A stretch of DNA of 64,000 nucleotides from an uncultured Gemmatimonadales bacterium (GTDB taxonomy: Bacteria; Gemmatimonadota; Gemmatimonadetes; Gemmatimonadales; GWC2-71-9), in NCBI GenBank assembly GCA_963844035.1, contig CAWJMT010000031.1:92637-156636 (forward strand), in the 5' to 3' direction. How positions within the stretch are numbered: the stretch's first letter is position 1; every line of letters starts with the position of its first letter. Shown in pieces: positions 2,737-6,765 of the stretch. The notes beneath the pieces were generated by a model. That model saw nothing but the letters and a program-made list of their open reading frames with translations, was not told the origin of the DNA and made no database searches. Made by a program: the position numbers and the translations under genes.

Positions 2737-2755
2737 CCATGCGCGACGCGCATGG
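2737..2755. promoter_or_regulatory. Putative LysR-type binding site (ATGC-N7-GCAT, T-N11-A) overlapping the LysR start codon
   Basis: Palindrome CCATGCGCG-A-CGCGCATGG in the divergent region between the receiver gene and the LysR gene. Confidence 0.6.
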
Positions 2756-4679
2756 CAGAAAATGGAGCGTCCGTCTCGGTGGACTTGCGGGATCTGCAGT
2801 ATTTCGTCGCGGTTGCGATCACGGGGAACTTGAGTCGCGCGGCCCGCGAAGCGCGCGTCGCACAGCCGGCGCTCTCCCGTCACGTCCGACGGCTCGAGCG
2901 CGAGTTGGGCGTCACCCTGCTCACCCGCCATCCCAAAGGCGTCACGCTGACTCCCGCCGGCGCGTCGTTCGCGCAGGGAGCCCAGGAGTTGCTGCACGGC
3001 GCGGCGGCATCGCTCGACCGTGCCGCCGCGACGGCCGCAGGGCACCGCGGCAGGGTGGTCCTGAGCGCCACGCTGGCGGCGATCGCGCGCGGGTTCCCCA
3101 CGGCGGTGCAGGACTCGCTGCGCCAGGATCATCCCGAAATCACCGTCGCCATCCAGGACTTCGACCCGCCGGACTCGTGGGAAACGGTCGCGGATGGAAG
3201 AGCGGACATCGCGGTCTGCCTGGAGCATGGGCGCGCTACGCCGGGCTCATCGCCGAGCCGCTCTGGGTCGAGACGCTGGATCGCGCCATCGTGCCCCGTG
3301 ACCATCCCCTGGCGACTCGCGGCACCGTGTCGCTCCCCGAATTCGGAACCCTGCCCTTCATTTTCGCCCGCAGCACCATCAATCCCGGGACGTTCGATCG
3401 CGGGGCCGACGCGATGCGCAACGCCGGAATGCAGTCCCCCGTGGTGGCGCTCGAGGGCGATCTGCGCGCCGTCCATCTCGCGGTCGCCGCCGGCCGCGGC
3501 TGGACGTTGATGTCGCGCGCACGCGCCAGCGCGCCACCCGAAGGAACCGCCGTGTTGACGGTCGAAGGCTTCCACCTGGCTGCAACGCATGATGGTGGAG
3601 TGGCGCCGGGGTGAACGGCGTCCCGTGGTCCACACGGTGTTGCGCGGATGCTCGAGGTGGCCGGCAGCTATCCCGAAACGCAGGTGCGCGCGACCCCGGC
3701 CCTGCCCCCGCCGTCTCGCGCCCACCCGCCCGCGCCGCCCGCCGGGCACGGTGCCGCCTGGCGTGGACCTGCGGCACCTGCGCGCGCTCTTGACCGTCGG
3801 CGCCGCGCAAACCATCGGGCGCGCGGCGGCGCATCTCGGCCTTACTCAGCCCGCCCTCTCGCGTCAGCTGCGCGAGATGGAGCATGCGCTCGGCTTCACC
3901 CTGCTCGAACGCTCGGCGCGCGGCGTGGCGCTGACGCCCGCGGGAATCTCCCTCACCAGCGACATCCCGGTGTTGCTCGCCGCGGGGGAGCGCCTGCAGC
4001 GCGAAGCGACGCGCGCCAGGCGCGGCAACGAGGGACAGTGCGTCATCGGCGCGGTGGCGACCGCGGCGTCGAGCGAGCTGCTGGCGCGCGTCACCGCCCA
4101 GTGCGCTGCCACGCCACCCCGCCGTCACGCTGGTCATCCAGGAAATGACCACGCCCGCTCAGTGGGCCGCGCTCACCCGCGCCGAGATCGATCTGGGGCT
4201 CGCCAACGCGCTCCCCACCGCGCGACGCACGCCGGCCGGTGCCATCGTCGCCACGCGCGTCCACCACGATCGACTCGATACGGCGCTGTTGGCGCGGGAC
4301 CACCCGCTCGCGGGGCGCCGCCGGATCGACGCGCGCGAGCTGGCGGACGTGCCCTTCCTGTTCATGGACCGCGCGTTCCATCCGGCGTTCTACGATCGGC
4401 TCTATGCCGCGTTTGCCGCGTTGGGGCTGCGGCCGCGCGTCGATTCGACCTATGACGGGCTGCAAACCGTCTGGGCCCTCGCGGCGCAGGGCCAGGGATG
4501 GGCGGTCGGCTTCCACTCCCAGCTCGCTCGCCCCCCGGCCGGGACCGTGGCGGTCCGGATCGCGAAGTTCAGCCTGCCCTTTGGACTCGACCTGTTGTCA
4601 CGGCGGGGGGAGACCAGCCCGACGGTGCGCGCGGTGACCGCCGTATTTCGGAAGCTCGGGCGGAAGGCGACGACGCTAG
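2752..4679 (+). CDS. Tandem double LysR-family regulator (HTH-SBD-HTH-SBD), several frameshifts
   Basis: Two LysR HTHs: DLRDLQYFVAVA...AQPALSRHVRRLE and DLRHLRALLTV...TQPALSRQLREME, each followed by a substrate-binding domain (DHPLA, VAAGRGW / AAQGQGW). Confidence 0.75.
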
Positions 4680-4695
4680 CTACATTCCTCCACCT

Positions 4696-4990
4696 ATGCG
4701 CCCACTCACGGAATGGTCCGATGCCTCGCGTCGTCACCACGGCGTGGGGCTGGGTCGCCTGCATCCTCGTGATCGCGTTCCTCACGCCCACCGGACGGTT
4801 TCTGCTCCGCCTGAACGCGATGCTGCGGGAGTCGGGAAACGCACAGGTCGATCTGCCGATCGCCGCCCTGCGCGTGTGGTTCGTGCTCACGCCGCTGTGC
4901 GCGTTCGTGCCCCCATTTGTGCTGCTGTTTGTCTGGTGGCGGACGCAGAAGTCGAAGCCGCCAGGCGGAAGGCCTTCGGCAGCGCGCTGA
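4696..4990 (+). CDS. Small two-TM membrane protein
   Basis: Hydrophobic segments WVACILVIAFL and VWFVLTPLCAFVPPFVLLFVWW; ATG at 4696 (indel) or 4721. Confidence 0.5.
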
Positions 4991-5017: not shown

Positions 5018-6019
5018 GTGCTGCTGCTCATCAAGAATCTGATCTTCACCATACTCGTCCCGGGTACGGTCGCGGGATTCCTCCCCTACCTCATCTCGGC
5101 GCGGGCGACTCCGTCCATGCTCGCGGTACCTGGTCGGTTGTGGCTGGGCGGGCTCCTGGCGCTGGCCGGCGGGGCGGTGTATGGCTGGTGCCTGTGGGAC
5201 TTCGCGACCCATGGCCGAGGCACTCCGGCGCCGATCGATCCACCGAAAGAGCTGGTAGTCCGGGGCCTGTACCGCACCATGCGGAATCCGATGTACGTGG
5301 GCGTGCTGCTCATCATCGCAGCCTGGCTCGCGCTGCGGCCGTCGTGGGCCTTACTCGGGTACGCCGCAACCGTGGGGCTGCTGTTCCATGGGTTCGTGAT
5401 CGCCGTGGAGGAGCCGATGCTGCGGCGGCGGTTTGGCGCGGCGTACGACACGTATTGCCGCAAGGTGCGGCGCTGGTGGCCGGGGCGGCCGCGGCACCTG
5501 TCGCGCCGCGAGCGCGCCGCCCGCGAATTCGGGCTCCCCGCGTGGGCCCAGGTCGGCCGGAGGCGGCGGGAGCACATCGAGCGCGTCGTGGCGCTGCTCG
5601 AAGAGTGGGCCGACGACATGGACGTATCGGACCGCGAGCGCGACCGCTGGGTCAAGGCGGCGTGGCTGCACGATGCGTTGCGCGACGCGCGTCTTCAGGG
5701 CGCCGCGCACGGCGAGGCTGCGGCCGACCGGGCTGCCAAGGACGGCGAAACCGACCGCGGTGTGCTCGATGCGGTCCGCTACCACAGCTCGGGCTACGCC
5801 GGCTGGGACGATGTGGGCAAGATGCTCTACCTGGCCGACTACCTCGAGCCCGGTCGTAATGACAACCGCAAGGAGCGCGCGAGCCTCGCCACGCGCGTGC
5901 CGCGGCAGCGCGACCGGGTGTTGCGGAAGATCGTGGCGTACGAAATCCGCTGGCGGGTGCGCGCCGGCCGCCCGGTTAATCCCCACCTGATCGCCTTCTG
6001 GAACGCGCTCGCCGGCTGA
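5018..6019 (+). CDS. ICMT/PEMT-family membrane methyltransferase fused to a YqeK-like HD-domain hydrolase
   Basis: GRGTPAP..PP..LVVRGLYR..RNPMYVG..EE..L..RFG..Y..YC; then WLHDALRDA, HGEAAA, AVRYHSSG, LYLADYLEPGR. Confidence 0.75.
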   Translation: MLLLIKNLIFTILVPGTVAGFLPYLISARATPSMLAVPGRLWLGGLLALAGGAVYGWCLWDFATHGRGTPAPIDPPKELVVRGLYRTMRNPMYVGVLLIIAAWLALRPSWALLGYAATVGLLFHGFVIAVEEPMLRRRFGAAYDTYCRKVRRWWPGRPRHLSRRERAAREFGLPAWAQVGRRRREHIERVVALLEEWADDMDVSDRERDRWVKAAWLHDALRDARLQGAAHGEAAADRAAKDGETDRGVLDAVRYHSSGYAGWDDVGKMLYLADYLEPGRNDNRKERASLATRVPRQRDRVLRKIVAYEIRWRVRAGRPVNPHLIAFWNALAG

Positions 6020-6064: not shown

Positions 6065-6109
6065 AAAACGCGACCGCGTCGCCGGGCCGAACACCCAGAC
6101 GACGCGGTC
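6065..6109 (-). terminator. Intrinsic terminator-like hairpin
   Basis: Minus strand GACCGCGTCGTCTGGG-TGTTCGG-CCCGGCGACGCGGTC followed by GCGTTTT. Confidence 0.6.
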
Positions 6110-6182
6110 ACTTGTCCAGCGCGAGCCCGGCACGATCGTCTGCCGGCTCTTACCTGTGGCGCAAATCGCGATTCGGTACCGG

Positions 6183-6245
6183 TCAGCTACCGATCAGGCG
6201 ATCGCTTGCCCATGCCAGGTCGCGCGGGGATCTGTGGCTAGACAA
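6183..6245 (-). CDS. Putative 20-aa small peptide MSSHRSPRDLAWASDRLIGS (or ncRNA)
   Basis: TTG start immediately after AAGGAGGTGATCCA (6259-6246); own promoter and terminator. Confidence 0.5.
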   Translation of the reverse strand: MSSHRSPRDLAWASDRLIGS

Positions 6246-6293
6246 TGGATCACCTCCTTGGTTGATGTGGTGGTTGGGGCGGAGAACTCGCCT

Positions 6294-6322
6294 ATAGTAG
6301 AACCGATCGCTCGCCGATGCAA
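6294..6322 (-). promoter_or_regulatory. Sigma70-type promoter TTGCAT-N17-TACTAT
   Basis: -35 at 6322-6317, -10 at 6299-6294, exact 17-nt spacer, in a GC-rich background. Confidence 0.6.
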
Positions 6323-6366
6323 CGGGCGTGCTGGCGCGGTTCTATCTGTGACGTAGGATTCCCCTC

Positions 6367-6765
6367 ATGGCGAACGATCCCACGGTGCGAATTGAACAAA
6401 CGCCCGACTGCCTGCTCGTGTCCGCCCGCGGAACCATGAGCGTGGCCTGGTTCATCGCTCTGGTCGGCCGGATCGCGCAGGTGGTACGCGACACTCCCAC
6501 AAAGAGCGCCCTGATAGACGTGCGCGAGGTGGTGGGATCGCTGTCCGACATGGACCGCTACGACATCGGCGTGGGCGCCGCGTCGTTCGGGATCAGAGTG
6601 CCGGTCGGGATCGTGGGAACGGAGCCCCTGATCGAACCCGATCACCTCGGCGAGGTGGTCGCCCGCAACCGCGGCATGAACGTGCGCGCCTTCACGGATT
6701 ACGACGCGGCGTCCAGGTGGCTCCATGAGGAGCGAGCGCACGCGTCCTCGCGCGAACCCGCCTAG
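6367..6765 (+). CDS. Hypothetical protein, STAS/SEC14 (SpoIIAA-like) fold
   Basis: ALIDVRE..GSLSDMDRY...EVVARNRGMNVRAFTDYDAASRWL pattern. Confidence 0.6.
   Translation: MANDPTVRIEQTPDCLLVSARGTMSVAWFIALVGRIAQVVRDTPTKSALIDVREVVGSLSDMDRYDIGVGAASFGIRVPVGIVGTEPLIEPDHLGEVVARNRGMNVRAFTDYDAASRWLHEERAHASSREPA

Follow-up and report, generated by a model that had tools for sequence, protein, structure and literature searches.

The minus strand of an otherwise empty intergenic gap in an uncultured Gemmatimonadales bacterium carries a perfect 14-nt complement of the 16S rRNA 3' end directly ahead of a TTG-started short frame, which raises the question of whether this is a gene and, if so, whether it makes a peptide, traps ribosomes or does something else. 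We analyzed it within a window of 64,000 nucleotides, the whole stretch of DNA under study. The reading that we favor, at a probability of about 0.6, is a fold-gated, translation-released 30S docking RNA of approximately 225 nt. It would belong with the rre type, small mRNAs with an extended Shine-Dalgarno (SD) sequence that are named rreB in Bradyrhizobiaceae and rreR in Rhodobacterales (Hahn et al., RNA Biol 14:1353, PMC5711450, of which part was available to us). The unit is flanked by the end of a methyltransferase/HD-domain frame (5018-6019, plus strand) and by an unnamed 132-aa frame (6367-6765, plus strand). The promoter, A/C-rich leader, extended SD, TTG frame, hairpin and terminator-like stem reported in a preliminary description of this DNA were all found at their positions on the minus strand. 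The parts of the unit are as follows.

6317 to 6322, minus strand: putative -35 hexamer TTGCAT; TTG-N-TANNNT stands at a fixed distance in 30 of 58 homologues, and the consensus scan is silent here.
6294 to 6299, minus strand: putative -10 hexamer TACTAT, which would place the start site near 6287.
6276 to 6280, minus strand: GCCC element of the leader, predicted to form the fold-B pseudoknot with the GGGC bulge at 6211-6208.
6246 to 6259, minus strand: extended Shine-Dalgarno sequence AAGGAGGTGATCCA, the 14-nt complement of the 16S 3' tail.
6183 to 6245, minus strand: TTG-started 20-codon frame, kept as a frame, with no detectable selection on the peptide sequence.
6213 to 6225, minus strand: 5' strand of the long-range helix P1, which begins at +21 of the frame and shows covariation.
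6197 to 6212, minus strand: near-invariant block UGGGCAAGCGAUCGCC; internal anti-RBS in fold A, bulge and helix P2 in fold B.
6119 to 6138, minus strand: anti-anti-RBS, consisting of the 3' strands of P2 and P1; the local hairpin 6149-6123 overlaps it.
6065 to 6109, minus strand: GC-rich stem resembling a terminator, its U run short; seven RNAalifold consensus pairs, all with double-sided changes.

The complement is real, since the host genome's own 16S gene ends in GGAUCACCUCCUUUCU, which confirms the perfect 14-nt match claimed earlier. The sequence AAGGAGGTGATCCA occurs twice in the 3.47-Mb genome, in the 16S gene itself and at 6259-6246, and Markov models give a chance expectation per genome of 0.02-0.03 for the 14-mer and of 4-5e-7 for the 20-nt head. 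The predicted SD:16S duplex has an energy of -24.6 kcal/mol, compared to -8.6 kcal/mol for AGGAGG. Among 153 ATG starts, a conservative choice from a crude gene-finder script, the longest SD was 7 nt and none had more than seven complementary bases; the match is indeed far longer than a normal SD. An SD core preceded 24.8% of these starts (8.7-9.8% in controls), and a TANNNT motif lay 5-8 nt upstream of the ATG in 9.8% (0.7% in the control), with a further peak at 9 nt, in agreement with the earlier remark that many nearby genes look leaderless: the genome mixes SD-led and leaderless-like starts.

To follow the unit across the phylum, we used a 20-nt head consisting of the extended SD, TTG and TCTA. 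With up to two mismatches, this head was present in 164 of 401 Gemmatimonadota genomes, as a single copy in each, and its reversed control in 0. A looser head pattern was found in 213 of 401 genomes, compared to four control genomes; this tally counts one match in an unpublished genome (G207), which is also in the 401-genome denominator of the stricter count; no other result depends on that match. In a DNA search, 25 of 100 relatives matched the element at E<1e-5, and beyond the closest relatives the alignments mostly began at the SD or just before it. The distribution is patchy, with the head in 21 of 24 genomes of one genus (g24) and 14 of 15 of another (g13), and in 0 of 9 and 0 of 5 of two further genera (g48 and g17). 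It was not found in 237 of the 401 genomes, whole genera included, and a relaxed search of 19 head-negative genomes returned chance-like matches only, "not found" being here less than proven absence. The gene looks dispensable in many lineages, and it has possibly been lost in streamlined lineages of one family, f2. In that family the 29 carriers have a median genome size of 4.6 Mb, and the non-carriers are smaller by eye.

All comparisons below rest on a working set of 62 distinct sequences including the window's own, namely 58 loci and four TTG loci from a scan for the exact head. The 58 were drawn from the 20 best DNA-search loci, 30 looser-pattern loci and 20 hand-picked regions, with duplicates and seven non-TTG matches removed; the set keeps one ATG member, is not a random sample, and contains relatives that are not independent. 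In these homologues the complement of the 16S tail is 11-16 nt long, mostly 13, so that 14 nt is not universal; it reaches 16 nt in 2 of 62, the two bases just before the TTG are variable, and the TTG start does not pair with 16S. The match ends at the TTG, where the 16S antisense goes on as GCC. That the locus matches by chance or is a piece of an rRNA gene is hardly conceivable: the 14-mer alone has a 2-3% probability per genome, and this is outweighed by the 164 of 401 genomes against 0 controls, by covarying helices and by the match that stops at the TTG. We consider this reading refuted by conservation. The preliminary description is supported in its view of a stand-alone unit, which is conserved and should engage the 30S subunit. 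The unit has a promoter and terminator of its own as far as sequence can tell, and it is likely to be a conserved single-copy gene of Gemmatimonadota with a predicted RNA of the above length.

The promoter proposed at 6322-6294 stood in part. Its hexamers match 7 of 12 consensus positions, and the promoter scan made no call there; its position and its conservation speak for it, TTG-N-TANNNT being present in 30 of 58 homologues and ending 32-37 nt upstream of GGAGG. This positional conservation supports the putative promoter. The terminator-like stem at 6109-6065 has 18 pairs and only four U, and the region 6287-6062 has a fold energy z of -2.65 relative to shuffled sequences. The hairpin at 6149-6123 is present where it had been described; it is seen in close relatives only, and its 3' arm is the partner strand of the conserved long-range helix. 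Neighboring genes differ within the window's own subclass, and waaA, Rce1-like or DsbA neighbors are common to loci with 19-22-aa and with 11-aa frames, in a survey that scanned 42 of 66 candidate neighbors with Pfam. In the window, the frame at 5018-6019 (plus strand) encodes both a PEMT/ICMT methyltransferase domain and an HD domain, either as a fusion or through a lost stop. Each of two genes at 2752-3614 and 3589-4990 (plus strand), which we take from their translations to encode LysR-like regulators, seems to be broken into two frames, which points to frameshifts or assembly errors.

The short frame is kept. TTG serves as start codon in 61 of the 62 homologues, and a stop follows at codon 11-22 in all 62 in this frame; the two remaining frames have one there in 15 and 16 of the 62. 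No TTG locus was discarded for its frame length. The three length changes upstream of the conserved block are multiples of 3 nt. The encoded peptide behaves differently. A Pfam search of the 20-codon frame gave no match, and in 27 sequences with 20 codons in register pN/pS over codons 2-20 is 0.99, with alike entropies at codon positions 1, 2 and 3 (0.93, 0.93 and 0.83). At codons 12-16 the third positions are invariant, with W/R/G, S/N/R, D/G and R/H exchanges at first and second positions, and pS in the most conserved block is 0.011. Loci with common neighbors (waaA, Rce1-like, DsbA) encode unrelated peptides of 11 versus 19-22 codons. Because the frame is kept in 62 of 62 loci, yet pN/pS is 0.99 and the wobble positions are invariant, the RNA and the act of translation look to be under selection rather than the peptide, judging from the alignment.

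These data bear on the possibility that the 20-residue peptide is the product and that the RNA folds merely ration its synthesis. Such a reading could draw on the preserved frame and stop, on the length changes in multiples of 3 nt, on the clade-wise conservation reported for the RreB and RreR peptides (PMC5711450, in the part available) and on 11 viral contigs in which the same head leads a 65-codon frame. It is rather improbable given the pN/pS of 0.99, the fixed third positions with their low pS, and the 11-22-aa peptides of unrelated sequence at loci with common neighbors; overlapping RNA structure can mask protein selection, so that these results make a peptide role less probable. The more specific proposal of a highly translated microprotein is not supported, given the same pN/pS, the TTG start in 61 of 62 and a head near-identical to that of rreB, which owes its weak translation to this head according to the available part of PMC5711450.

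What the conserved block within the frame does is suggested by folding. RNAalifold, run unprompted on the 41 sequences of the GGGCA class, paired GGUGAUC with GAUCGCC and UUGUCU with GGGCAA. This fold A would hide the start codon and the 3' half of the SD by pairing them with codons 12-16, and 96.7% of its cells are paired. Covariation in fold A is not above that of shuffled alignments, 79-477 of 500 shuffles reaching it, as would be expected where one side is fixed by the 16S tail; its support consists of conservation and one-sided changes, from which we infer that the RNA folds in this way. The anti-SD 7-mer pairs at six or more of seven positions in 41 of 41 GGGCA-class RNAs and fully in 20 of the 21 other members, which carry an anti-SD of the same kind within shorter frames. 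The same anti-SD is fully paired in 12 of 12 rreB-type loci and was found in 27 of 66 CC2171-like, 1 of 18 rreR-like and 2 of 14 ATG loci, these class labels being our own. In a general test for duplexes between the RBS and downstream sequence, z fell below -1.5 in 33 of 41 GGGCA-class and 15 of 21 other Gemmatimonadota loci, and in 3 of 12 rreB-type, 5 of 17 rreR-type, 32 of 62 CC2171-like and 6 of 17 ATG loci; the signal is modest outside the main class.

A second structure, fold B, competes with the first. Here codons 8-11 pair with a segment upstream of the terminator (P1), and the helix is continued by P2, which includes the anti-SD; P1 is incompatible with fold A, and P2 sequesters the anti-SD. 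Fold B has 84.2% of its cells paired (77.5% in shuffles, 29-44% in slid controls) and 88 cells with double-sided changes (36.9 in shuffles), and neither value was reached by any of 500 shuffles. The covariation score of the whole structure was likewise reached by 0 of 500 shuffles, and the number of covarying pairs by 19 of 500, in a test in which the subclasses were out of register with each other over the outer half of P1. Most of the signal is due to P1, with double-sided changes at 9 of 12 pairs; as the per-sequence choice of P1 partner is unreliable for several short RNAs, the alignment-wide covariation is the fairer test. In fold B a bulge also remains, with a GGGC that is able to pair with GCCC in the leader. 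Both elements are present in 40, neither in 17 and one without the other in 5 of the 62 loci, which are not phylogenetically independent; the pseudoknot cells are 93.6% paired and nearly invariant, with little covariation, and a fifth pair is broken in 9 of 40.

Partition of the RNA between the two folds was modeled at equilibrium, with shortened RNAs standing for truncated transcripts; these calculations do not describe kinetics, and ViennaRNA ignores pseudoknots. Fold A had a probability above 0.5 in 30 of 41 shortened RNAs, compared to 9 of 41 at full length, where P1 exceeded 0.5 in 26 of 41. P2 exceeded 0.5 in just 16 of 41, and mean accessibility of the SD region rises only from 0.29 to 0.39. 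For the RNA of the window, fold A has a predicted probability of 0.96-1.0 up to 160 nt and of 0.09 at 170 nt. At full length its energies are -97.3 kcal/mol for fold A, -98.0 kcal/mol with P1 constrained and -95.9 kcal/mol with P1 and P2, and the probabilities are 0.36-0.47 for fold A, 0.23-0.26 for P1 and 0.00 for P2; in this model the full-length RNA is a near-even mixture of folds. Fold B of the window leaves the start codon paired, as in just 4 of 41 RNAs.

The closest described relative is rreB, which according to the available part of PMC5711450 is a 165-nt RNA with a 17-nt complement, a GTG start and 14 codons, co-sediments with 30S and decays in a start-codon-dependent manner. The window's unit resembles it in being a stand-alone small gene with a near-identical head (AAGGAGGTGATCCA-NTG-TCT in the rreB cloning primer), a non-ATG start and a short frame, in an RBS predicted to lie in a hairpin, in the GAUCGCC anti-SD inside the frame (all 12 rreB-type loci) and in a genomic context that is not widely conserved. 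It differs in its complement of 14 nt (11-16 in homologues) instead of 16-17, in a TTG start instead of GTG, so that the start codon does not pair with 16S, and in a peptide that is not conserved, unlike that of the rreB clade. The window's predicted RNA is also longer and has two features absent from the available rreB text, a competing helix that covaries and a possible pseudoknot. That article, as far as available, names only alphaproteobacterial orders, and the word "Gemmatimonas" is absent from one of its supplementary files; its search reported complements of 16-17 nt in Alphaproteobacteria only, and the Gemmatimonadota form, mostly 13-14 nt across the phylum, would fall below that length.

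Set against the hallmarks of the rre class, the unit has an extended SD directly before a weak start and a short ORF (TTG in 61 of 62, 11-22 codons), a promoter and terminator of its own by sequence, and an RBS in a conserved hairpin with downstream sequence, the last without covariation support. It lacks a complement of at least 16 nt that takes in the start codon's first base (14 nt; 11-16 in the 62 homologues) and a clade-conserved peptide (pN/pS 0.99; 11-22 aa). A match to a described family, which the preliminary description had named as refuting, exists at the level of the class (rre) and not at that of Rfam: in the Rfam check, no family reached the gathering threshold anywhere in the window. 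The nearest model, RF01867 (CC2171, a Caulobacter sRNA), scored 19.1 bits against a cut-off of 75, with 35.6 for the best Gemmatimonadota locus and 42.1 for an rreB-type locus; its cut-off was passed by 5 of 20 tested loci, all of them sharing the head. At its 5' end the CC2171 consensus has almost letter-for-letter the head of the window's unit, and its 3' body is unlike. CC2171 is expressed in Methylorubrum (bioRxiv 10.1101/2022.01.24.477521, seen in part). Given the shared head and internal anti-SD and the two missing hallmarks, the unit is likely a variant of the published but unexplained rre class and neither rreB nor CC2171. A literature search, with most subscription journals outside its coverage, returned no paper about this RNA from Gemmatimonadota and none that followed up rreB.

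A scan for the exact head in other records gave at least 120 stretches. Of these, 80 carried titles, mostly Alphaproteobacteria or unranked proteobacteria and four Gemmatimonadota; among the records listed, one each was titled Planctomycetaceae, Pseudohongiella and Gammaproteobacteria, indicating that the rre class is wider than published. Frames of 10-26 codons followed in 113 of the 120 matches listed, and 107 of the 115 non-TTG loci among the matches listed had a complement of 16-18 nt, of which the search pattern itself required 14. An ATG-started class with the same head has mostly 22-26 codons (L110, L121, L144, L189, L193, L197 and others, including the Pseudohongiella and Gammaproteobacteria records), and a 10-codon GTG frame stands behind it in the Planctomycetaceae record (L115). 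In 11 viral contigs (L230-L240) the extended-SD/TTG/TCT head directly follows an upstream stop and leads a 65-codon frame, so the head can front a phage frame of ordinary length. All 11 belong to one gene family, which we rejected as a form of this RNA, and a PHROG search of one of these frames gave no match. In one genome, three AGGAGGTGATCCTCTG copies lie within 27 kb on one strand (G069:C2:1253024, 1260953 and 1279764), probably in a repeated coding domain.

Conservation covers the extended SD, the TTG, the short open frame and the terminator stem as a set and does not extend to the peptide sequence. In the docking reading, fold A would form first in the nascent RNA and hide the RBS, and fold B would replace it once the 3' strand appears, exposing the RBS; this order is suggested by the truncation folding. 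By analogy with rreB, the 14-bp duplex would then hold the 30S subunit tightly, and the UUG would make initiation rare. P1 starts at +21, just past the limit of the initiation footprint, so docking need not melt it and elongation would. Melting of P1 by elongation would free the anti-RBS, and the site would be closed again or the RNA exposed to decay. In this way the RNA may both park free 30S subunits, with translation setting the time, and act as a gauge for them. A bolder version seems unlikely to us: that rre RNAs form a multi-phylum ribosome-docking class whose mini-frame is only a release switch, and that the Gemmatimonadota RNA clamps the 30S, the leader GCCC (about -35) and bulge GGGC (+35) closing a loop behind the subunit and the helix at +21 blocking ahead, and that the 16S tail stays covered until the clamp is unzipped by one of the rare initiations at UUG. 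If true, this would be an RNA-based device for storing or sensing small subunits, with no protein equivalent described. For the docking reading itself, a form from a distant phylum with the same head, an unselected peptide and a covarying fold shifts the question from the role of the peptide to why bacteria keep a ribosome-docking RNA, and the covarying fold supplies specific base pairs for mutation.

The other half of the preliminary description's proposal was a bulk trap for 30S subunits that would lower SD-led initiation and favor leaderless mRNAs under stress. The duplex energy of -24.6 kcal/mol, the mixture of SD-led and leaderless-like starts in the genome and the stand-alone context suit this idea. 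We nevertheless doubt it, as ribosomes are in large excess over rreB, 20-fold overproduction of which, the one experiment that bears on the idea, had no effect on growth (PMC5711450, in the part available), and as an open frame and stop kept in 62 of 62 loci imply release and not a dead end.

Very unlikely, in our estimate, is an ordinary sRNA that acts in trans by pairing its C-rich leader or its anti-SD to other mRNAs, or a type I toxin mRNA. A stand-alone promoter and terminator would be compatible with either, and co-transcriptional, metastable SD-hiding hairpins, one of them inside the ORF, have a precedent in aapA3, a type I toxin mRNA of Helicobacter pylori (PMC6733600, seen in part). 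The likeness to aapA3 is confined to one point, a hairpin formed with ORF sequence that hides the SD and is proposed to work while the RNA is being transcribed; the window's unit lacks a hydrophobic peptide and selected residues, no antisense partner was seen, and its SD is far longer than needed. Intramolecular and 16S pairing already account for the conserved segments, the gene is single copy throughout, and the peptides are hydrophilic (mean GRAVY -0.48, maximum 0.57 in 62 peptides), against the membrane peptide of a toxin. The opposite strand has no consensus promoter, in a scan that also misses the sense promoter.

Metatranscriptome data give a weak hint of expression. Parts of 6065-6328 are covered by contigs from five runs of five studies (X1, X2, X5, X6 and X9), several of which differ from the window little or not at all; in all, 24 runs matched the stretch, none with half of its words, and six were examined. 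The contigs were selected for holding the stretch, so their uncovered flanks are no evidence, and they carry no information on strand, ends or level, and DNA may be among them. Two of them pass the predicted promoter and inferred start to 6327-6328, which indicates DNA carry-over or an upstream start.

Finally, an invariant core, GGAGGUGAUC, spans the anti-SD and the adjacent GAUCA, presumably the Era-binding site, and is better conserved than its flanks. This core would fit an RNA that checks or protects the 16S 3' tail, either by binding only trimmed 30S with a free tail or by shielding the tail from nucleases in starvation. Such a role appears quite improbable: there is no rRNA or ribosome-biogenesis gene among the Pfam-named neighbors, no link to the presence of bS21 or HPF-family genes, and the leader differs from the boxA-like motif of the rRNA operon. 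The leader was rejected as a boxA antiterminator, as the rRNA operon carries its own, different motif, which we take to be boxA, in leader and spacer. We also rejected an association of ribosomal factors with loss of the RNA, bS21 being present in 34 of 34 and the HPF family in 32 of 34 genomes, carriers and non-carriers alike. The host has two bS21 and two HPF-family genes (G000:C23:38051-38209, C4:346963-347121, C36:219352-219642 and C3:141344-141604), and genomes of its family often have two bS21 matches. A guiding role of the leader for the pre-16S processing stem was discarded, a long resemblance to the conserved GTCGCCCGCACT of the spacer being visible by eye in about 3 of 62 leaders (L011, L072 and L106); the leader GCCC needs no such role, being explained by internal pairing. 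The spacer downstream of the 16S gene (L001, L075-L096) has a conserved GTCGC-CCGCACT in the window's family, the 3' part of which can pair with the rRNA leader, and the sRNA leader of L072 has 16 consecutive bases in common with this spacer in the window's genome.
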